41,887 bases of DNA, from positions 1 to 41,887 of the forward strand of contig CAYLGV010000002.1 of NCBI GenBank assembly GCA_964383395.1, given 5' to 3'. The notes beneath the pieces are model-generated. The model was not told the DNA's origin. It saw nothing but the letters and a program-made list of their open reading frames with translations, and searched no databases. The stretch is from an uncultured Candidatus Saccharibacteria bacterium. GTDB lineage: Bacteria; Patescibacteriota; Saccharimonadia; Saccharimonadales; CAYLGV01. Of this stretch, positions 19,911 to 41,111 are shown one piece after another. The translations under genes were made by a program, and so were the position numbers. The stretch's first letter is position 1; the number at the start of each line of letters is the position of its first letter.

Positions 19911-21231
19911 AGCTCGGTCCTTCGTACAAGTAACCAGCCTTATGATACAACCAGTCTTTGTCAGCTTGGGTTGGGTTGGCAACTAAGAAGTGAAGATAGG
20001 TATTTGGGTTATAAAAGCTGTGTGCTTGGTTTGGTGGGTTTGATATTCCACCTGGCAATACATAAAATACGATACCTGCCTCTTGTTGATAGCCTGTACG
20101 GCCTGCAGCTAGTTGCTCAGGAGTTTCGTAATGTGTCGTCCATAGATGCATTTGTGTGCGTGGATTATATAAACGATAAACAGGTGTTGCGAGTGGTGAA
20201 GTAGCAGGTGTAGTGTTAAACACTGGTCCTTCGTTTATGTAGCCAATTTGCGCAAGGAATGATACATCGCAGTCACGTGCAGAGTAGAAGTGATCAAATG
20301 TTCGAGGGTTATAGAAACGGCGGACGTAGGATAGGGTAGGTTCGTTGGCTGTACAAGCACCGGCAATTGTGCTCCCAAACCATCGGCTAAAGTACCAAAA
20401 GAAGTTCCTATTACCATACGCGCTACAACCGTCCCCACCGCCGGCATTAGAATCTGAAAGACCACTCAAAGCTGCTGGGTTAGGCTGGTATGGCGTGTAG
20501 TTATAAAGGCCAGCAGTAGCTTGGTTACGAATGAAGATGTTTGTTCCACCACAACCAGCGTTAGGGTTGTACTGAATATAGTTATTGCGACCTTTCTGGT
20601 AACTAAAGAGGTTGGCATCACGGGCATATCGCTTAAACTGTCGTGCTGCGTTATAGACTTGGTTGAAAAAGCCATAGTAGTTCGCATCGCAAGGAGCTGT
20701 GTCAGGACATCCGTAGCCTGTTGCGCTACGGTACTGAATACTCCATGGCCAATCATCGGTGATAAGTGACTGTTCTTTTTGTAACAAAACAATAAGTACT
20801 TGGGGGTTTATACCACAGCTACGCGACACCACGTAGATAATTTCTGCTGCAGATTTTGTACCAGAACCAATCCCTGTACATAATCCGCTTTCTGCATCCT
20901 TTTGGGGGATACCTACCTGCACGTAATCTTTAAGGCAGGTGAATGGTGCGGGATAGCCCCTGGATGCGCCATATGCTGCTCTTGTGGTACCTGCATAAGG
21001 CTGTGTACCATTTGTGTCACAAACGGGAACTTTGCTATTCAGGAAGTTCTGGATGTCGGGAATACTCATTAAGCTTGAGTTGAAGAAAACTTCATCGTCA
21101 ATGATTCGGCCTGGGTCAAAGTCACTGGCTGCGAGCGCGCTAGCTTTTGGCTGCGGAGCTGCAGCAACAATGCTTAAGCAAAGAACTAGGCTGATGGTGA
21201 CTGCAAATAGGGTGTTTAACTTTCTTAACAT
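19897..21231 (-). CDS. secreted protein: cysteine-rich N-terminal domain (possible cell-wall hydrolase-like) plus three C-terminal repeats
   Basis: The signal peptide is MLRKLNTLFAVTISLVLCLSIVAAAPQPKASALA. The central stretch is SAAEIIYVVSRSCGINPQVLIVLLQKEQSLIT. The C-terminal repeats are listed as a separate feature. The start overlaps the stop of the upstream gene (TAATG at 21231). Confidence 0.7.
   Translation of the reverse strand: MLRKLNTLFAVTISLVLCLSIVAAAPQPKASALAASDFDPGRIIDDEVFFNSSLMSIPDIQNFLNSKVPVCDTNGTQPYAGTTRAAYGASRGYPAPFTCLKDYVQVGIPQKDAESGLCTGIGSGTKSAAEIIYVVSRSCGINPQVLIVLLQKEQSLITDDWPWSIQYRSATGYGCPDTAPCDANYYGFFNQVYNAARQFKRYARDANLFSYQKGRNNYIQYNPNAGCGGTNIFIRNQATAGLYNYTPYQPNPAALSGLSDSNAGGGDGCSAYGNRNFFWYFSRWFGSTIAGACTANEPTLSYVRRFYNPRTFDHFYSARDCDVSFLAQIGYINEGPVFNTTPATSPLATPVYRLYNPRTQMHLWTTHYETPEQLAAGRTGYQQEAGIVFYVLPGGISNPPNQAHSFYNPNTYLHFLVANPTQADKDWLYHKAGYLYEGPSFNTQ
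19903..20328 (-). repeat. three protein-level repeats of about 40 aa (FYNPxT..H......GY..EG..F; DUF5648-like as I recall)
   Basis: R1 is RRFYNPRTFDHFYS...IGYINEGPVFNT (aa 302-340). R2 is VYRLYNPRTQMHLWT...GYQQEAGIVFYV (aa 351-391). R3 is SFYNPNTYLHFLV...AGYLYEGPSFNT (aa 404-443). Confidence 0.6.
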
Positions 21232-21830
21232 TACTGAGCCCTAACACTTAAGTTACTGGTTGTCGTGCCTTCAGAGGTTGGTGAAGTATAGGTTACCTTC
21301 AAGCTCCAGTCACCTGCGCTTAGTTCTGATGATGAGAAAGTGATAGGCGCACAGTTGGTATTTGAGACGTTATCGACGGCAGCTCCTGACTTAGTAACAG
21401 GATTTGCGCCTGAGCGAGAAGCGGTTACTGTACATGTTCCACCGGCTTCAATAACACCAGAGACAATAGCATTTACGACGTAGCCATCTGAACCAGCTGG
21501 CCCAGCGTAAGAGACAGTTACGGTAACTGCTTTTTTACCACTTGGAGTTTGGCTAGGGGTAGGGTTGGTATTGCTACTATTGTTCTTTGGGTCCGATGTG
21601 TTCGTTGAGTTTGAATTTTGTTGGTTAGCAAGCTCTTCCTTGTGCTCCTCAGTGGCTTGCTTCTCTTGAGGAGTAGGTCCACTTACTGTATTGGTAGGAG
21701 TGTCATTTTGTCGAGCCTTATAGAATGCAAAGCCAGTTCCAAAAACTACCAAGACGGCAAGGATAGCCACAAATATAGCCTTTTTGTTTCTTGGTGATCG
21801 ATGATTTTTTGAATAGGTTTTTGTCTTCAT
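21231..21830 (-). CDS. membrane-anchored exported protein with an S/T/N/P-rich linker and a small beta-rich C-terminal domain
   Basis: The N-terminal anchor is AIFVAILAVLVVFGTGFAFY. A low-complexity stretch NSNSTNTSDPKNNSSNTNPTPSQTPSG follows. The C-terminal domain of about 100 aa has two Cys residues. Confidence 0.7.
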   Translation of the reverse strand: MKTKTYSKNHRSPRNKKAIFVAILAVLVVFGTGFAFYKARQNDTPTNTVSGPTPQEKQATEEHKEELANQQNSNSTNTSDPKNNSSNTNPTPSQTPSGKKAVTVTVSYAGPAGSDGYVVNAIVSGVIEAGGTCTVTASRSGANPVTKSGAAVDNVSNTNCAPITFSSSELSAGDWSLKVTYTSPTSEGTTTSNLSVRAQ

Positions 21831-21886: not shown

Positions 21887-23818
21887 TTACTTGCGAACCC
21901 AGACCGTTTGTTGACCGAAACCAGTTAGTGGTTCATATTTCTCATTCAGAACACTATATACCTCTGGGAAGCGCTGAGGATTTGGCACAAAATCAAAATT
22001 ACTTGTCCAGTTATTATTTGTGACAACATACTTGACATTGTCCATGCTGTTTAGCTGGCCAGCAATCTCTTGGCGTTGAGCGCCTGTGTAGGCATACCAG
22101 ATGATAAAGTAACGAATGGGTGATGGTTTGTCTGCTAAGTAGTACCAAATACCTTCCGAGGTAAGGGTTACGAATGTATCTGATCCGTGCATATTCTGTT
22201 TTAAGAACGCTGCTGTTTCGAGATAGTCAGGACGGACGATCTCACTGTCTTTCAGGTGTATTGGAAATGCATCGTGAGCGATGTCGATCTTTTTAACTTG
22301 TATGCTAAATGCCAAAAGCACAATACCCAACAATAGTATGGTCAAGTAATTGATCGCCGTACCAAGTTTAAGTTTGCTACTGAAAAGATAGTTTACAAGC
22401 AGGACGGATAGAAGTAGGTAAGTCCATTGAACAGTATAGGCAAAGTGTGACACGTCAGACCTGCCAATTGCACTACGTAAGAAAACAGCAGCTGTTACAA
22501 AAAGAAGTATTACAATATAGTGTTTTTGGATGAGATCGGCGGTATTGTCTCTTAGAGCCGCAATGCGTGCACTCCAGTTTTTGGTGCTGAGTTTCTTCTC
22601 TGACCATATCTTAACTAGGTAACTGCCACCTATGAAAACACCAACCGACATTATTAGCAGTAAGATACTCACAGACATGTTGGGCTGCTTAAAGATGATG
22701 CCGTCAAGATACTCTTTATACCTAGACATAGTGAGGGTGTAGACGATGAAGTCACGGAATGCCCATTTGAGGGCAAGCCCGAGTACTGGTATACCAACAA
22801 TAAGGCCAAAAATATACGGAGCAACAGTGTACTTTAAGAAGCTTCGGAACGGAGAAAGAATGAGCAACATCAATAGCCAACCAAGGGAGAGGAAGGTTAT
22901 GTAGAAAGCTCTATCAATTGAAACTGCGTAGGTGGTCATGACAATGAAGCCAATTGCAAAACTACAGAGTGCAAAAAGTGCAAATCGCTTCCTTCGCCAA
23001 TATCTAATGCCAGTAATCGCTGATATAAGGAACAGAATCGTGGGTATGTCTCTGAACGGAAATTGAACAGGTATGAAAATCTTATTGAGAAGACCGAGAC
23101 CGGGTAGGGATAACAAAGCCAGACCGATAAGAGAAAGACCAAGAGCTGATTTGAGTAGGTTACCTTTAAATATTACCAACAGTAGCAGGAAGTAGAGCAT
23201 ATAGGTGATGATGATGAGAATCGTTGTAAAGGCTCGAGATGCGCCAATACTTTGGCCGAAGAACTTGAAGGCTAACACCGTTCGCAATGTATCTTGAAAG
23301 ACTCCATGGATTGGCACGAAGTCTCGATATGGCTTGAGATTAGGTTGTTGATAAGCGAGCGCTGGTGCTAGTGTCTCGCCTTCATGGAAGGTATCAACCA
23401 GAGCGTATTTATAGGGTTCGCCGTAGGTACCTACCGGATTATTAGCGGGGTTAGTACTGTTCTGGTAGATTCCCATCCCAACGCAAAGTAAAAGACAGGC
23501 CAGAGTTAGAATAATCTTGCCACTAAATATAAGTCGTTTGTTCTTGGTAAGCTTTTGGAGTGACTTTGCGTTAACAAGAAGCCAGAAACCAAAGCAGGCT
23601 AACGGGGGTAATAATACTGCAAATAGAAATCGCAAAATGTTGCTTGTCGGATTGTACTGAATTGTCGGCAAGTAACTAATAATCCCAGCATGATCGCGGT
23701 ATGGAAGTTGGATTGCTCCCCAACAAAGCCATACACCATAGAAGGTTAACAAGAAGATATATGTGTATGCACTACGCAAGACAGCAGTAAGATTTTTCAT
23801 AAATGTTTCTAAGCCCAT
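21887..23818 (-). CDS. polytopic membrane protein with a C-terminal extracytoplasmic domain; possible GT-C-fold glycosyltransferase
   Basis: 643 aa with about 12-14 hydrophobic helices. An acidic loop VDTFHEGE follows the early helices, and the soluble tail is about 130 aa. The family assignment rests on architecture and neighbourhood only. Confidence 0.6.
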   Translation of the reverse strand: MGLETFMKNLTAVLRSAYTYIFLLTFYGVWLCWGAIQLPYRDHAGIISYLPTIQYNPTSNILRFLFAVLLPPLACFGFWLLVNAKSLQKLTKNKRLIFSGKIILTLACLLLCVGMGIYQNSTNPANNPVGTYGEPYKYALVDTFHEGETLAPALAYQQPNLKPYRDFVPIHGVFQDTLRTVLAFKFFGQSIGASRAFTTILIIITYMLYFLLLLVIFKGNLLKSALGLSLIGLALLSLPGLGLLNKIFIPVQFPFRDIPTILFLISAITGIRYWRRKRFALFALCSFAIGFIVMTTYAVSIDRAFYITFLSLGWLLMLLILSPFRSFLKYTVAPYIFGLIVGIPVLGLALKWAFRDFIVYTLTMSRYKEYLDGIIFKQPNMSVSILLLIMSVGVFIGGSYLVKIWSEKKLSTKNWSARIAALRDNTADLIQKHYIVILLFVTAAVFLRSAIGRSDVSHFAYTVQWTYLLLSVLLVNYLFSSKLKLGTAINYLTILLLGIVLLAFSIQVKKIDIAHDAFPIHLKDSEIVRPDYLETAAFLKQNMHGSDTFVTLTSEGIWYYLADKPSPIRYFIIWYAYTGAQRQEIAGQLNSMDNVKYVVTNNNWTSNFDFVPNPQRFPEVYSVLNEKYEPLTGFGQQTVWVRK

Positions 23819-23988: not shown

Positions 23989-24447
23989 GTGTATAGGGTA
24001 TTGCCGCAAAATAAACACATTGCATGGAGCTGGCAGCTAGTAAAAGAGTCTTTCGAGCTCAGCCCAAGCCGCAAGACATCCATCCAGCTTATTCGTAGCC
24101 TGATTGTTTCGATTGTTGCTCTTGTGGTGGACTTTGGCGGACTAATCTTTCTTAAAGAAGTCTTTAATATTAATTATCTAGTTGCAGCGACAATAAGCTT
24201 TCTGGCTGGTGTTACGGTCAACTACATACTAAGTGTTAAATGGGTGTTTGCTGATCGCAAGCTCTCTTCTCGCAAGGCTGAGTTTATTATTTTCGTTGGC
24301 ATTTGTACGATTGGGCTTGGATTGAACTTGGCTATTATTGCCGGTATGGTTCAAATCGGGCATCTTGACTATCGTGTGGCAAAAGCTGTATCAACGGTTG
24401 TTGTATTCTTTTGGAATTTCATTGCACGGAAGAAGATATTGTATTAA
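23989..24447 (+). CDS. GtrA-like family membrane protein
   Basis: LIVSIVALVVDFGGLIFL and SFLAGVTVNYILSVKWVF are typical of the 4-TM GtrA family. The start is GTG at 23989; TTG at 24001 is an alternative. Confidence 0.8.
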   Translation: MYRVLPQNKHIAWSWQLVKESFELSPSRKTSIQLIRSLIVSIVALVVDFGGLIFLKEVFNINYLVAATISFLAGVTVNYILSVKWVFADRKLSSRKAEFIIFVGICTIGLGLNLAIIAGMVQIGHLDYRVAKAVSTVVVFFWNFIARKKILY

Positions 24448-33024: not shown

Positions 33025-34857
33025 CTACTCAACAGTCACCGACTTCGCCAAGTTCCGAGGCTGATCAATATCTAGACCTTTCTCCAGTGCCACGTAGTAG
33101 GCAAAAAGCTGCATGGCAATGGCAGCCAGAATCGGCTGGGTTTGAGGCAAGCTTTCAGGTAGCTCAATAATGTCTTTGGTAAGTCTCCTAAGCGTATCGT
33201 TGCCTTTTGTGCCTACGGCGATGATGGGACCACTCCGGGCACGGATTTCTTCAAGGTTTGATAGCGTTTTTTCTTCAAGCTCACCAGATCCTGCCAGAGC
33301 AAAGGTCGGTAGTTCTTTATCGATCATGGCTAACGGCCCATGCTTTAGCTCCCCAGCTGCAAAGCCCTCAGCATGTATGTATGAAACTTCTTTTAACTTT
33401 AAGGCACCCTCTAGCGCGGCTGGGTACAGATTACCCCGTCCAACATATAAAAAGTTCTTACTAGAAGCATATTTCTTAGCAAGCCTCTTGATCTTCTCCT
33501 TGTCTTTTATAGCCTCTTCAGCCTTGCTTGGTAAGGCCAGGAGCTCTTCAAAAAGCTCGGTATGTAAGGCAGAACGATCGCCAGATAAATGAAGCGCCAG
33601 TTCAAGTAGTATGGTTACCTGGGCAATGAATGCTTTAGTACTCGCTACAGATCGCTCAGGTCCAGCGTGACAGTACACACCAGCTTGGGTAAGTCGAGCA
33701 ATCGTTGATCCGACGACATTAACAATACCAAGTGTTAAAACGCCGAAAGGGGCTACTTTTTTAATTGCAGCAATAGTGTCAGCTGTTTCGCCAGATTGCG
33801 AAATAGCTAGTAAGGCAGAGCCACGTGATATAGGCTCTTCACGGTATTTAAACTCAGACGCTAGTTGCACCTCAACTGGTATACCTGCTATTTCTTCGAT
33901 CAGGTACTCGCCAACCAGTCCAGCGTAGTATGACGTACCGCAGGCAACAATAATTATCCGTTCAATGTGCTTGAGTTGCTCGCGCACCGCTTCAATGCCA
34001 CCAAGCTTAACGGTGGTGCTATCGGGCTGAATGCGACCACGAGTAGCCGATCTGATCGTTTCGGGGATATCATGGATCTCTTTGATCATGAAATGGTCAA
34101 AACCATGCTTACTATTCTCTTCGGTATCAATTTCAATCGCTTCACTGTTTCGTTTAATCGATGTTTTTTCGTGCAGGTGAGTGATTTCCAGGTTGTTGGC
34201 AGTTATTCGGGCCACTTCAAAATCTGCTAGGTACACTACTTCTTGGGCCTTTCCTTGAATCGCTGAAGCGTCAGAGGCAATGTAATGTGCCTGCGTGCCG
34301 ATACCAATAATCAACGGGCTTGATAAGCAGGCAACATATAGCGCATCAGGCTCGTGAGTATATAGTGCAGTAATTGCATAGGCGCCTTTAAGCTCTAAGA
34401 TGGCTTGCTGAAACGCTTCTGAAAATTCCTTGGTAGTTCGCAGATGGTACGCAATCAACATAGGTATTACTTCTGTGTCGGTATCAGACTGAAATACATA
34501 GCCCTCACTTTCTAGAAATCGTCGAAGTTCCTGGTAGTTCTCAATAATCCCGTTATGCACTACGAAGACCTCCTGGTTCATGTCACAATGCGGATGCGCG
34601 TTACTTACAGTAGGTGAGCCATGTGTAGCCCAACGTGTGTGTCCAATTGCCAAACTAGACTCAGTAAGTTGCTGAGCTAATACTTCTTTTTGAAGTTGAT
34701 TAACGCGTCCTGATTGTTTTAAAAGTCGAGGTGAGCCAGATTCAAGCGTGACGAGGCCAGCTGAGTCGTAACCTCGATACTCCAAAGCTTGTAAACCAGT
34801 CAGAATGAAATCGATTGCTTTAGGTTTTTTGCCTACATAGCCAACAATGCCGCACAT
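33025..34857 (-). CDS. glmS: glutamine--fructose-6-phosphate aminotransferase
   Basis: The MCGIVGYVG N-terminal nucleophile, two SIS domains and a C-terminal LAKSVTVE are present. 610 aa. Confidence 0.95.
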   Translation of the reverse strand: MCGIVGYVGKKPKAIDFILTGLQALEYRGYDSAGLVTLESGSPRLLKQSGRVNQLQKEVLAQQLTESSLAIGHTRWATHGSPTVSNAHPHCDMNQEVFVVHNGIIENYQELRRFLESEGYVFQSDTDTEVIPMLIAYHLRTTKEFSEAFQQAILELKGAYAITALYTHEPDALYVACLSSPLIIGIGTQAHYIASDASAIQGKAQEVVYLADFEVARITANNLEITHLHEKTSIKRNSEAIEIDTEENSKHGFDHFMIKEIHDIPETIRSATRGRIQPDSTTVKLGGIEAVREQLKHIERIIIVACGTSYYAGLVGEYLIEEIAGIPVEVQLASEFKYREEPISRGSALLAISQSGETADTIAAIKKVAPFGVLTLGIVNVVGSTIARLTQAGVYCHAGPERSVASTKAFIAQVTILLELALHLSGDRSALHTELFEELLALPSKAEEAIKDKEKIKRLAKKYASSKNFLYVGRGNLYPAALEGALKLKEVSYIHAEGFAAGELKHGPLAMIDKELPTFALAGSGELEEKTLSNLEEIRARSGPIIAVGTKGNDTLRRLTKDIIELPESLPQTQPILAAIAMQLFAYYVALEKGLDIDQPRNLAKSVTVE

Positions 34858-36007: not shown

Positions 36008-37426
36008 CTATTTTGCTCCAGAGCCATTTATAACGGTGCGGATAGTGCGAAGCAGAATGCTAATGTCGAGCCAAAACGTCCAGTTCTGAACATAATACAT
36101 GTCAATAGTGCGGCGTTCTTCAAAACTAATATCACGACGTCCAGAGATTTGTGCCAAGCCCGTTAACCCAGATTTTACACTAAGGATCTTATGGCGCTTT
36201 TCATACTCATTGAGTTCTTGAGGGATGAGTGCGCGAGGACCTACAAGACTAATGTCACCTTTGAAAACGTTGATGAGCTGGGGTAGTTCATCGAGGCTGG
36301 TTTTACGCAAGAAACGTCCCATTGGCGTAACGCGAGGATCTTTTTCTAAGAAATCACCATTAGCTCGGTAGGTTTTCGATAGTTCTGGTTTACCCATCAT
36401 CTTAAATGCTTCTTCTGGTGTAGTGCCGTCGTACTTCTTGTACTGCGTCCTAAATTTATAAACTCTAAAAGAATTATTGAAGCGCGTTAGGCGATCTTGT
36501 CTAAAGAACACCCCACCTCCCCATATGGCATTTATGGCAGCGATCAGTAATAGAAAAGGTGCGAGGAAGATAAGTAAACACAGGCTCATAACGAGGTCAA
36601 ACAAGCGCTTAATGATACGGCCCCAGCCAACCAGAGGTGTTTGATGCACTGCAATTACTGGTAAGCCTGCGAATAACTCCACAGTTATGTTGCCTACGAA
36701 TAAGTCGCTATTGCCTGGAACAAATCGGTATGAAATGTGGTTGATTTGTGCAAAACGTAATATCTCGTCATTGCGCTCCGCAGCTTTGTACAGCTCAGTT
36801 TGAATAATGCCATTTGGCAGTTCTTTAAGATGCTCAAGTGCTTCAGCAAAAGTGGTGTAGTGTTTGAACTTGTCGTTTGAGTTATGGCCGACAATACCAA
36901 CGATACGTACACCTGTATTACGGGTATCAGACATAATCCTGGCAATCTCAGCACTGGCAGTCGTATCACCAACAATCAAGATATTGCTTATACCAATACC
37001 GTAGTTAAAAAGAGCATGGCGAATCCAGCGAGCAATTGAGCGAAAGATGACCAAGAAGGTAAAGCCTACAATGAGGCCATATAGGGGAACGAGACGACCA
37101 GGGAGTAGCTTGTCTTCAGTCATAAAGTCATAGCCAATAACCATGAGAATTCCTAGGAAGGATCCAAACAGCAGGCGTCCCAGCTCACGGAAGCGCCGGT
37201 CGTAAATATTCTGGTTGTAGAGACCCAGTAAGCCATTTACGAGAATCCACAGCGGAAGCACACTAATGATAGTTACTAGATATGCGCGTCCTGGAACGGT
37301 TGAAATGCCAGGTGTCTCAAGCCATCGGAACCGTAAGAAGTAGGCAGTAGCAAAGGCAGCGACCAACGCCAAGAAATCACCAACGATGAGAAACAGTGAG
37401 AAAACGGCCGAGGCGTTGTTCTTCAT
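36008..37426 (-). CDS. polyprenyl-phosphate glycosyl-1-phosphate transferase (WbaP/CpsE-type initiating sugar transferase)
   Basis: The C-terminal bacterial sugar transferase domain contains [25 protein letters not shown] and [28 protein letters not shown]. An N-terminal TM bundle and a central Rossmann-like region are also present. Confidence 0.9.
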
Positions 37427-37437
37427 ATCTGGTCACC

Positions 37438-37446
37438 ATTGTACCA
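37438..37446 (-). promoter_or_regulatory. extended -10 (TGGTACAAT) for the minus-strand precursor operon
   Basis: The minus-strand TGGTACAAT ends 11 nt before ATG 37426. There is no SD in the gap. Confidence 0.4.
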
Positions 37447-37459
37447 TCGCCAGTCCACT

Positions 37460-37546
37460 TTTTGTTTGTAGGGTACGGAAAGCCGCCAATAGAACAATTG
37501 TTCTTGGCTTTCCTCCGGCAAATAAGCCGAGCCCCTACAAACAAAA
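37460..37546. promoter_or_regulatory. nested inverted-repeat operator containing a GAAC-N4-GTTC palindrome
   Basis: The outer 14-bp arms are TTTTGTTTGTAGGG (37460..37473) and CCCTACAAACAAAA (37533..37546). The middle arms are GGAAAGCC (37477..37484) and GGCTTTCC (37506..37513). At the centre is a perfect 14-bp palindrome AGAACAATTGTTCT (37491..37504). The element lies between two divergent -10 elements. Confidence 0.6.
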
Positions 37547-37567
37547 TGTGTACAGGCATTCTCTCGG

Positions 37568-37576
37568 TGGTATACT
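37568..37576 (+). promoter_or_regulatory. extended -10 (TGGTATACT) for the GtrA-like / LexA-like operon
   Basis: TGGTATACT lies 21 nt before ATG 37598. There is no clear SD. Confidence 0.4.
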
Positions 37577-37597
37577 AGTCTAAGAAGCAAAAGCGCT

Positions 37598-38149
37598 ATG
37601 AAGCTCAAGAAAAAACAAACCAGAGAAATAAAACGCTTTACCGAGTACATGATCAGCGGTGGGGCTTATTTTTGGTCAGGCTATCTGACGTTCTTCATTT
37701 TCGACAAAGGCTTTCAGTCGAGCTTCTTCTGGGCTAAGTCTATCTCGACACTGGTCGGCTGGACGGTAAATTATCTGTTGCAGCGTTACTGGGTATTTAG
37801 AAACCCCAAACTTAAGGACCACCAAACCCAAGTGACTTGGCGTTATGCAGTGATCACCGTCACCGACTTCGTACTTGACTATCTCATTGTCTTTGGGCTT
37901 AAGACGATCGGTATTACGCCTTACATTGGTCAATTTGTATCATCTGGATTCTTCACCATATGGAATTACTTCTGGTACAAGTACTGGGTTTTCCCAGAGC
38001 AGTTCGCCAAGAAAAAGGGCCAACCCAAGGCACGCCCACATGCTCCATACGTTGCACATCGTCCTCATGGACATGCAGCCTATACTCGTAAAACAACCAA
38101 AAAGCCAACTACTAAAGGGGCGAATCGCACAAGGAGACAACATGCCTGA
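37598..38149 (+). CDS. GtrA-like family membrane protein with a basic His/Lys/Arg/Thr-rich C-terminal tail
   Basis: FTEYMISGGAYFWSGYL, LVGWTVNYLLQRYWVF and IWNYFWYKYWVF are GtrA-type. The tail starts at nt 37994. Confidence 0.75.
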   Translation: MKLKKKQTREIKRFTEYMISGGAYFWSGYLTFFIFDKGFQSSFFWAKSISTLVGWTVNYLLQRYWVFRNPKLKDHQTQVTWRYAVITVTDFVLDYLIVFGLKTIGITPYIGQFVSSGFFTIWNYFWYKYWVFPEQFAKKKGQPKARPHAPYVAHRPHGHAAYTRKTTKKPTTKGANRTRRQHA

Positions 38150-38597
38150 AGTTATACGACCAACCAAGAAACAGCGTGAACTGCTCACCTTCATCGAAAC
38201 CTTCATCGGTGAGCATGGCTATAGCCCAAGCTACCGAGAGGTTATGCAGGGCCAGGGCTATAATTCAGTGGCCACCGTAGCCCTACATATAAACAGTCTT
38301 ATTAAACGAGGTCATCTAAAGAAGCGTGACAACTCCGCACGTTCGCTTGAGGTAGTTAAGGCCTCAGATACTTCACCACTGCAAACTAACGAGGTTAAAC
38401 CTCACGAAGAAAAGTGGCTGGTTGAAAAGGTTGAGCATAGATTTACGCAAGCCGAACAAGCAAGTGTACTCGAAGAAGCTGAGCTAGATGCGCTCTATGT
38501 ATTAATAGGTGGCTTAAAGGTACTTGGTCTTGAAGGGGCAGCACAAAGCTTCATCCCCCGTTTAACAGAGTTGAAGGCAAAAACTCAACCGGTCTAG
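38142..38597 (+). CDS. LexA N-terminal DNA-binding-domain protein lacking the S24 peptidase domain
   Basis: AAGGAGA SD, then ATG 38142. The sequence PTKKQRELLTFIETFIGEHGYSPSYREVMQGQGYNSVATVALHINSLIKRGHLKKRDNSARSLEV follows the LexA winged-helix pattern. The remaining 80 aa or so are helical and charged, with no Ala-Gly cleavage site or Ser/Lys dyad motif. The track ORF start at 37875 overlaps the GtrA gene. Confidence 0.75.
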   Translation: MPEVIRPTKKQRELLTFIETFIGEHGYSPSYREVMQGQGYNSVATVALHINSLIKRGHLKKRDNSARSLEVVKASDTSPLQTNEVKPHEEKWLVEKVEHRFTQAEQASVLEEAELDALYVLIGGLKVLGLEGAAQSFIPRLTELKAKTQPV

Positions 38598-40313: not shown

Positions 40314-41111
40314 ATGACGATTTTTCAGGCGTTTATTTTGGGGCTAATCCAAGGCCTCACAGAGTTTATCCCCGTTTCATCCTCGGGTCACCTGGTTATT
40401 GCGCATCATGCGCTTGGAGCATTCAATAATGGCTTGGCCTTTGACGTAGCTCTTCATGCTGGTACGCTCATTGCTCTGATTACATATTTCTGGAAAGACC
40501 TCATTGTTTATGCCAAAGCATTGTTTGTAAAGAGCAAAGAAACACGCCTGACATGGTTACTCATAGCAGCTACCATTCCAGCGGCCGTTATTGGTTTCTT
40601 GCTTGAGAGCTCTGCTGAGTCTGTTTTTCGATCTGGGCGACTTGTAGGATTCACAATGCTTACCTTCGGATTAATTATGATCTTGGCGGAACAGTACTAT
40701 AAGCGTCGCAAACAACACACATCCCTCGAAGATGTTACCACCAAGCAGGCCATGAGTATGGGCTTGGCTCAAGCGATTGCTATCATACCTGGCGTATCAC
40801 GCTCAGGGAGTACTATCACTGCTGGTTTATTCTTTGGGCTTGACCGTGTATCGGCAACTCGCTTTTCATTTTTACTCGGTATTCCTATCACCGCAGGCGC
40901 AATACTAAAAGTCTTCACTGAACAGGGTATTATCCAGCAGTTCCAAGATGAACGTGCTGCTGTTCTTGTTGGCATCGTAACGGCAATGATCAGTGGCTTG
41001 TTTGCTATTCGCTTTATGATTCGTTTTCTTGGTAAGCACGGGCTGTATATCTTTGGGTATTACCGGATAATTATAGGGTTACTATTAATTCTCGTCTTCA
41101 CCTTGAATTGA
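40314..41111 (+). CDS. uppP: undecaprenyl-diphosphate phosphatase
   Basis: FILGLIQGLTEFIPVSSSGHL and IPGVSRSGSTI are canonical BacA/UppP motifs. Confidence 0.93.
   Translation: MTIFQAFILGLIQGLTEFIPVSSSGHLVIAHHALGAFNNGLAFDVALHAGTLIALITYFWKDLIVYAKALFVKSKETRLTWLLIAATIPAAVIGFLLESSAESVFRSGRLVGFTMLTFGLIMILAEQYYKRRKQHTSLEDVTTKQAMSMGLAQAIAIIPGVSRSGSTITAGLFFGLDRVSATRFSFLLGIPITAGAILKVFTEQGIIQQFQDERAAVLVGIVTAMISGLFAIRFMIRFLGKHGLYIFGYYRIIIGLLLILVFTLN

Follow-up and report, generated by a model that had tools for sequence, protein, structure and literature searches.

A nested DNA palindrome between divergent promoters of a surface-glycan locus in Saccharibacteria

Non-coding plastid DNA holds small inversions in which, among close relatives, the loop of a stem-loop has been inverted repeatedly while the arms stay complementary, with no consistent phylogenetic pattern. 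Bacterial genomes hold palindromic intergenic elements, such as the Correia elements of Neisseria, REP/BIME, ERIC, RUP and miniature inverted-repeat transposable elements (MITEs), which measure about 100-150 bp, end in repeats of about 25 nt, form long hairpins, lie in either orientation and may lend promoter elements to neighbouring genes. The element described here is closest to palindromic intergenic elements (MITEs, REP-like sequences) in form, and to hairpin flip-inversions in behaviour. It is a nested palindrome of 109 bp (37449-37557; about 110 bp below) between two outward-facing promoters, in a large surface-glycan locus of a Saccharibacteria (TM7) genome. "The window" denotes the whole stretch of DNA analysed, 41,887 nt of contig CAYLGV010000002.1 (assembly GCA_964383395.1) from an uncultured Candidatus Saccharibacteria bacterium.

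As in the plastid inversions, a segment bounded by short inverted repeats is found in either orientation among close relatives, between arms that remain complementary; unlike them, the element is bacterial and located between two promoters, and the segment that flips is a 59-nt structured core with a conserved hairpin. The element shares all the listed traits of the Correia-type families, but these are present in tens to hundreds of copies per genome, whereas here one copy stands at one orthologous site; Correia elements also have target duplications, whereas this element has none, and no related copies in the collections searched. The Gram-positive LexA (Cheo) box, CGAAC-N4-GTTCG, has its core GAAC-N4-GTTC in the element as well, near a gene for a LexA-type winged-helix protein; in contrast to the Cheo/LexA system, this neighbour has no self-cleaving peptidase domain, and orthologous operons of other Saccharibacteria lack the box, which is surrounded here by additional nested repeats and a side hairpin. 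In fimS of E. coli and the capsule invertons of Bacteroides, as here, inverted repeats flank a segment of two orientations beside surface-glycan genes, but this element has no internal promoter, its segment is only 59 bp, no recombinase was found in the open reading frames (ORFs) scanned, and three assemblies are uniform. Finally, cruciform-forming palindromes have been placed between divergent promoters in engineered reporters for supercoiling experiments. The present element likewise has a palindrome whose perfect centre is AT-rich, at a place where divergent transcription concentrates negative supercoils; those systems, however, are built reporters, whereas this is a natural site at which extrusion is only predicted.

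We compared the window with 51 genome loci, 55 metagenome loci and about 20 contigs found through close protein homologues (L numbers below). The comparison indicates that the element entered a site where two divergent promoters used to overlap, and that it has been passed down at this one orthologous position within a single Saccharibacteria clade. It further indicates that the element has evolved as a self-pairing DNA stem, with at least two core flips, one clean deletion, two breakpoints at the distal arm and arms that change together. The explanation that we favour, at roughly even confidence, is a single-copy, lineage-specific DNA palindrome, capable of hairpin or cruciform formation and probably bound at its core by a protein, that separates promoters otherwise standing back to back.

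Architecture of the palindrome and its promoters

The original prediction, made from the window's sequence alone, described three nested inverted repeats within a 171-nt spacer between divergent start codons. Re-reading of the sequence and a repeat search recovered the spacer (37427-37597) and all three repeats where they had been placed. At the centre is a perfect 14-bp palindrome, AGAACAATTGTTCT (37491-37504), itself centred on CAATTG, and around it stand the 8-bp inner arms GGAAAGCC (37477-37484) and GGCTTTCC (37506-37513). Perfect 14-nt outer arms, TTTTGTTTGTAGGG (37460-37473) and CCCTACAAACAAAA (37533-37546), are separated by a gap of 59 nt and can be extended to 25 nt at 88% complementarity. 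The extended left arm GCCAGTCCACTTTTTGTTTGTAGGG (37449-37473), perfect over its inner 14 nt, forms 22 of 25 pairs with the right arm CCCTACAAACAAAATGTGTACAGGC (37533-37557), against 5-10 of 25 in slid registers. The inner arms, an asymmetric internal loop and the central palindrome together form a central 37-nt hairpin, hp1 (37477-37513). A side hairpin that the original prediction had not described, hp2 (CTCCGGC-AAATAA-GCCGAG, 37513-37531), is predicted in both RNA and DNA folds. With hp2 the fold becomes a three-way, Y-shaped junction instead of a simple nested stem; since hp2 makes the core asymmetric, it can also be used as a marker of core orientation. Neither the arms nor the hairpins are assigned a strand.

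A 14-bp inverted repeat at this spacing had been held improbable by chance, and our estimate agrees, with about 0.03 expected within 200 nt per 42 kb. A search with an 11-nt seed and a limit of 200 nt found just two inverted repeats in the entire window; the other has 19-nt arms, 84% complementary and 106 nt apart (1851-1869 and 1976-1994). The central palindrome alone had been considered not rare, and GAAC-N4-GTTC indeed occurs once in the window where 0.6 are expected, and at least once in 43 of 100 shuffles. Folding is exceptionally stable on both strands: RNA energies are -53.6 kcal/mol (plus strand) and -53.2 kcal/mol (minus strand) against about -25 to -28 for shuffles (z = -8.9 and -7.1), none of 200 dinucleotide shuffles equals this, and DNA parameters give -31.1 kcal/mol (z -7.4). 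The sequence also has the form of a cruciform-prone site, a near-perfect inverted repeat with the short AT-rich CAATTG centre inside longer arms. The 8-mer TTGTTCTT occurs in the central palindrome (37498-37505) and again in the first codons of the neighbouring sugar transferase gene (37416-37423; ATGAAGAACAA, minus strand), a recurrence that is probably due to chance.

Both flanking operons have candidate extended -10 boxes outside the element. On the minus strand, TGGTACAAT (37438-37446) lies 11 nt upstream of the transferase ATG at 37426 and is kept 11-12 nt upstream of that ATG in relatives with and without the element; at this distance the transferase mRNA would be nearly leaderless. On the plus strand, TGGTATACT (37568-37576) belongs to the operon of a gtrA-like gene, a LexA-like gene and an ABC transporter, in a promoter of the form TGTACA, 16 nt, TATACT, with TG. 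Its -35-like hexamer TGTACA (37549-37554) is supplied by the outer part of the right outer arm, and TGnTATACT with a conserved leader recurs upstream of gtrA across the phylum. The earlier claim that the element lies upstream of both -10 elements thus holds, as both boxes face outward and are kept in relatives with and without the element; with both promoters placed by conservation, the element would lie upstream of both transcription starts.

The -10 hexamers are 127 nt apart in the window and 12-23 nt apart in element-free relatives. In L055 and L002 they are separated by 22-23 nt with no element between, and L006 is similarly close and element-free. In many distant Saccharibacteria the divergent genes are about 20 nt apart (TACAATCTAGTATAG) and the -10 boxes stand face to face.

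Distribution and evolution within one clade

Conservation of the nested structure in related genomes proved to be partial: it is kept in one clade and absent from relatives outside it. In the loci examined, the element is limited to a genus-level group of Saccharibacteria whose GtrA proteins are 82-90% identical to that of the window. Carriers are the window, L001 (also L132-L134), L053/L054, L124/L125, L129, and L126-L128 with L057/L130; L131 holds a partly decayed and L052 a heavily decayed copy. The element or its remnant always lies directly upstream of the gtrA promoter. Inside the clade, L056 has no element, only 12 nt between the -10 hexamers (empty site ATTGTACCA-CTTCGG-TGATATACT), and is the sister of the element-bearing L001 at 93% identity in a tree of GtrA and the LexA-like protein. 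This clean spacer within the clade indicates that the entire repeat was lost there.

The two orientations of the core are both found among these relatives. The side hairpin hp2 faces gtrA in the window, L001, L053 and L124/L125, and faces away from it in L129 and in the basal lineage that we call type B (L126 with L057/L130). In L129 it is the exact reverse complement of hp2 in its sister L124/L125 (93% identity). Consequently, the core appears to have flipped at least twice. At the position equivalent to hp2, type B has a hairpin of other sequence. As the two types of hp2 do not correspond column by column when aligned, positional covariation does not apply to them, and all that they have in common is that each can be drawn as a hairpin. 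Type B folds with the same Y-shaped topology as the window (z -8.25).

About 50% of the outer-arm sequence differs from type to type, but the two arms of each element stay complementary. Besides the 22 of 25 Watson-Crick pairs of the window, L001 has 20/25, type B 23/25 and L131 13/18, compared with 3-10/25 in slid registers; when the arms are aligned without gaps, the share of paired outer-stem cells is 83.9%, falling to 27-51% once the register is slid. Fifteen of the 25 outer-stem pairs have changed on both sides with pairing kept, a number that none of 500 shuffles reaches. Comparison of the window with L001 reconstructs a perfect 25-nt repeat in their common ancestor; since then, seven substitutions have entered the gtrA-distal arm and one the arm that bears the -35-like hexamer. 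Likewise, the window, L001 and L125 have nearly the same right outer arm, but their left arms have drifted.

The central hairpin behaves differently. It is 77-97% identical in all pairwise comparisons, whereas arms and hp2 are only about 50% identical between types. In type B one hp1 stem pair has had both of its bases replaced (A-T to C-G), and the core substitutions between the window and L001 are located in predicted loops.

Two independent rearrangements, in L052 and L125, have put unrelated genes beside the distal arm; a common inserted gene upstream of the element in both was considered and discarded, as the genes are unrelated to each other. In L052 (1050-1210) two features precede the decayed element: a second promoter box of the outward type, TGATACAAT, now directed toward gtrA, and an unrelated gene for 285 aa that matches nothing in Pfam. 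The extra box and the unrelated gene point to a local rearrangement with its breakpoint in the element.

The element seems to be single-copy. A scan of the window and the related loci for the outer arm and the centre gave no further copy of either in the window, and no second element was found in the 41.9-kb window or in about 800 kb of related loci, which cover a small part of each genome. Three Logan contigs assembled at k=31 (L125, L133, L134), from two species, run through the element unbroken, which argues against a near-identical second copy in those samples. The pattern AGAACAATTGTTCT-N(0-10)-GGCTTTCC had no match in the JGI metagenomes, where the best full-length relative of the transferase protein is at most 64% identical, apart from a few short C-terminal fragments at 69-79%; the clade is thus absent from the JGI set. 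A blastn search of plasmids and phages gave no element match.

Short centre patterns matched 14 viral contigs (11 and 3), all in unrelated sequence context, and neither group was accepted as copies of the element: the 11 represent an unrelated phage intergenic motif, CGAACAATTGTTCGGCTTTCC, and the three matches to the hp1 19-mer have no palindromic surroundings. The IMG/VR viral contigs L058-L068 hold CGAACAATTGTTCG, a perfect Cheo-type box, in a non-coding stretch beside repeated TTGAC-containing units, with a second copy about 0.6-1 kb away. These are plausibly phage SOS boxes that have no connection with the element described here.

Nine Logan contigs (L053, L054, L057, L124, L126-L130) terminate within the core, in several cases about 30 nt inward of the arm/core junction, which is k-1 for k=31. 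This suggests co-occurring strains with a common core and differing arms, or low coverage. An assembly artefact of the palindrome was ruled out as the cause of the breaks, given that the perfect palindrome is only 12-14 nt long and three Logan contigs span the element. Farther from the clade, L029, L094, L095 and L032 (GtrA about 41-44% identical) have TTTGTTTGTATTTTGTT upstream of the gtrA promoter, a sequence that has the 10-mer TTTGTTTGTA in common with the left outer arm of the window. Native DNA upstream of the promoter is one possible origin of the outer arms; a chance match in low-complexity sequence is the other possibility.

Neighbouring genes and the LexA-type box

To the left of the spacer, a polyprenyl-phosphate sugar transferase gene (36008-37426, minus strand; Pfam Bac_transf, E 1.7e-58) heads the divergent glycan operon. 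Further minus-strand genes on this side are a GT4 glycosyltransferase and a 610-aa ORF (33025-34857), which occupies the position of a GATase/SIS, GlmS-like gene in L056. To the right, the plus-strand operon consists of the gtrA-like gene (37598-38149; Pfam GtrA_DPMS_TM, E 2.9e-17), the gene for a 151-aa LexA-type winged-helix protein (38142-38597, plus strand; Pfam LexA_DNA_bind, E 3.8e-13), an ABC transporter and a 265-aa ORF (40314-41111); in L055, L056 and L126 this operon has a BacA gene. The gtrA and LexA-domain genes overlap by 8 nt (38142-38149), and the pair is kept throughout the Saccharibacteria loci examined, which sets a DNA-binding protein inside an envelope operon of flippase, ABC transporter and BacA. 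The glycan locus has a second GtrA-family gene (23989-24447; Pfam E 2.2e-23), and near it lie two large ORFs (21231-21830 and 21887-23818) with no Pfam match.

The original prediction had matched the centre of the palindrome to the Gram-positive LexA box and pointed to a protein with a LexA DNA-binding domain downstream. Both observations were borne out: GAACAATTGTTC stands at 37492-37503, and residues 8-67 of the 151-aa protein match PF01726 (LexA_DNA_bind). According to Pfam the protein consists of the winged helix only, with no peptidase domain; its best solved relative is the DNA-binding domain of LexA repressor (PDB 3k2z), and the matches cover that domain only. The suggested link between protein and box was not supported, however, as boxes near the gtrA operon occur only within the element and the protein is intact where the element is deleted or decayed. 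The LexA-like gene is paired with gtrA in 67 Saccharibacteria loci, and among these no box is found upstream of the orthologous operon outside the element carriers; the empty sites of L056, L055, L002 and L006 are box-free. When the search for GAAC-N4-GTTC was carried beyond the window, 725 kb yielded six boxes against 10.8 expected from composition, four of them the element itself and the other two in loci without a gtrA match. With its resemblance to the LexA box unaccompanied by comparative support, the idea of a LexA operator is not supported, and the 151-aa protein remains a neighbour and a candidate binder of the element.

The gtrA leader has a conserved form of its own. After TGnTATACT and a few bases comes AAAAAGCGAAAGC, an AAGC direct repeat directly before the ATG, with no classical Shine-Dalgarno sequence; examples are the window (37568-37600), L055, L089, L090, L008, L018, L027, L002 and others. 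A passage in PMC7739468 cites the LexA motif of Patescibacteria as a direct repeat, not a palindrome, which makes this direct repeat worth attention. AAAAAGCGAAAGC could be the true operator of the co-transcribed LexA-domain protein, or a translation signal.

Competing explanations and significance

The original prediction preferred a DNA-level operator or cruciform to an RNA leader. A DNA-level palindrome is upheld by the outside position of the promoters, by the presence of both core orientations and by mismatches without strand bias; the part that relied on LexA is not. The alternative is a structured small RNA or leader, in which the Y-shaped fold would be transcribed alone or by read-through and regulate the glycan operons. 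The stability of the fold on both strands, the covariation of the stems (15 of 25 pairs) and the placement of window-versus-L001 core substitutions in loops would suit such an RNA. A stem selected in one RNA strand should nevertheless favour one class of mismatch, and outer-stem mismatches are balanced (G.T 6, A.C 5), a pattern that suits a DNA palindrome, which reads alike on both strands; a hint of a minus-strand RNA in the wobble pairs of the window and L001 disappeared once all mismatches were counted. Neither an internal promoter nor a terminator is predicted in the element: the promoter scan found no site inside 37474-37532, and its sole match uses the outer arm and faces outward, as do the two phylum-conserved -10 boxes outside the element. 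Rfam gave no match at gathering score on the whole window and, for the spacer at permissive E-values, only weak matches (best E 0.22), and ARAGORN detected no tRNA or tmRNA in the window. Furthermore, L129 and type B have the core the other way round with respect to both genes, so that a given transcript would carry the complementary strand in these close relatives. Balanced mismatches, outward promoters, the lack of an Rfam match and the inverted core together favour a DNA palindrome over a strand-specific RNA; the element is unlikely to be RNA, and we consider the regulatory RNA or leader quite improbable. At the level of DNA, a LexA-type operator would have the 151-aa protein, or a true SOS LexA, bind the central GAAC-N4-GTTC as a dimer and repress both promoters. 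The box is kept in the window, L001, L125, L126 and L127/L128, the neighbouring protein has the appropriate winged helix, and the window has no other such site, the position of which ahead of the regulator's own operon is common for self-regulating repressors. This explanation is nonetheless unlikely: in the 67 paired loci the box is confined to element carriers, the protein, which lacks the peptidase domain, persists in L056 (87% identity) despite the deletion of the element and in L052 (93%) despite its decay, the box is degraded in L129 (GTCC) and L131 (AAAC), the cited Patescibacteria motif is a direct repeat, and the outer arms, the side hairpin and the conserved asymmetry are left unexplained.

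The element could also be a selfish or neutral palindromic insertion, a MITE remnant or another hairpin insertion that is tolerated, with flips, deletion and decay reflecting the instability of palindromes. Its size of about 110 bp with 25-nt terminal inverted repeats, the patchy distribution with a clean empty site in the sister genome L056, the decay in L052 and L131, the uncompensated changes gained since the perfect ancestral repeat of the window and L001, and the two rearrangement breakpoints at its edge are what such an insertion might leave. We regard it as possible but doubtful, as no second copy exists in the window or in the 800 kb of Saccharibacteria loci, JGI, plasmids and phages gave none and the 14 viral matches are out of context, and k=31 contigs span the element in two species. 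Furthermore, inspection by eye of the window, L001 and type B against the empty L056 site showed no target-site duplication, the 26 window ORFs scanned (2.8-24.4 kb and 34.9-40.3 kb) contain no transposase or recombinase domain, and neutral decay does not explain an hp1 that is 77-97% identical beside neighbouring segments at about 50%. An active inversion switch, a very short inverton whose 59-bp core would be flipped by a recombinase between the 25-nt arms to toggle the surface-glycan operons, would account for the two natural orientations, even in sister lineages at 93% protein identity, and for the site between surface-polysaccharide operons, a setting that resembles known phase-variable loci. 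Nine contigs end within the core, but they end about 30 nt inside it and not at the arm edges, which fits better with a conserved core in co-occurring strains. The invertible part (37474-37532) has no promoter-like site, 59 bp is very short for recombinase synapsis, the same ORF scan found no recombinase, and three independent assemblies of the L001 species are identical and in one orientation; an active inverton is accordingly unlikely, and we give it very little credence. Two further candidates were set aside. A replication origin was ruled out, as the window has genes in both orientations and its GC skew does no more than track the gene strand, and inspection excluded a sigma-54 promoter (TGGC-N8-CGGCA across the hp1/hp2 junction), the spacing of which is not kept in type B.

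The favoured explanation, a single-copy palindrome with a probable protein-binding core, may be pictured as follows. Intrastrand pairing would keep the arms complementary through flip recombination, through template switching or through selection for the stem; intrastrand template switching at quasi-palindromes is expected to give recurrent flips and paired arm evolution. As flipping and template switching maintain complementarity by themselves, selection is not needed to explain the pairing. They do not explain the conservation of hp1, which from the aligned sequences points to purifying selection, most simply on a protein recognition site. The conserved hp1 would then be a putative site read either as duplex DNA or as an extruded hairpin, and the element, positioned where divergent transcription would accumulate negative supercoiling, may act on both promoters in either orientation, as a spacer or insulator and possibly as an operator. 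Several observations weigh against this explanation. All eight outer-arm substitutions between the window and L001 are uncompensated, so that pairing does not seem to be under tight short-term selection. The conservation of hp1 is lopsided, with GCCAAGAACAATTGT invariant and the opposite half reading GTTCT, GTTCA, GTTCC, GTCCT or GTTTT, a poor fit to a simple symmetric dimer site. The element is also dispensable, being deleted in L056 and decayed in L052 and L131. Finally, only four to five full-length element sequences are available, and that of type B is L130/L057 joined to L126, two contigs of one sample with an 11-nt overlap.

A more elaborate possibility is that the element works as a regulatory module, an extruded three-way cruciform driven by the supercoiling of the divergent operons, in which a protein would read the folded hp1 and core flips would change the promoter that hp2 faces. 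We think this improbable. If it were true, the element would be a very small orientation-dependent switch for envelope glycans in a genome-reduced episymbiont, with flipping that is either evolutionary or rarely somatic.

If the element is merely a tolerated insertion, the case is an ordinary one, and a warning that GAAC-N4-GTTC beside a LexA-domain gene is not evidence of an operator. Regardless of function, it offers a clean bacterial case of hairpin-driven micro-evolution, with flips, paired arms, excision and breakpoints at one site. Few regulators are known from Saccharibacteria, episymbionts with reduced genomes that probably attach to host bacteria by means of their surface glycans. A functional element, with its conserved hairpin directly between the two promoters that launch them, would provide a rare and testable handle on the control of the glycan locus of about 40 kb and of the gtrA, ABC transporter and undecaprenyl-diphosphatase operon.

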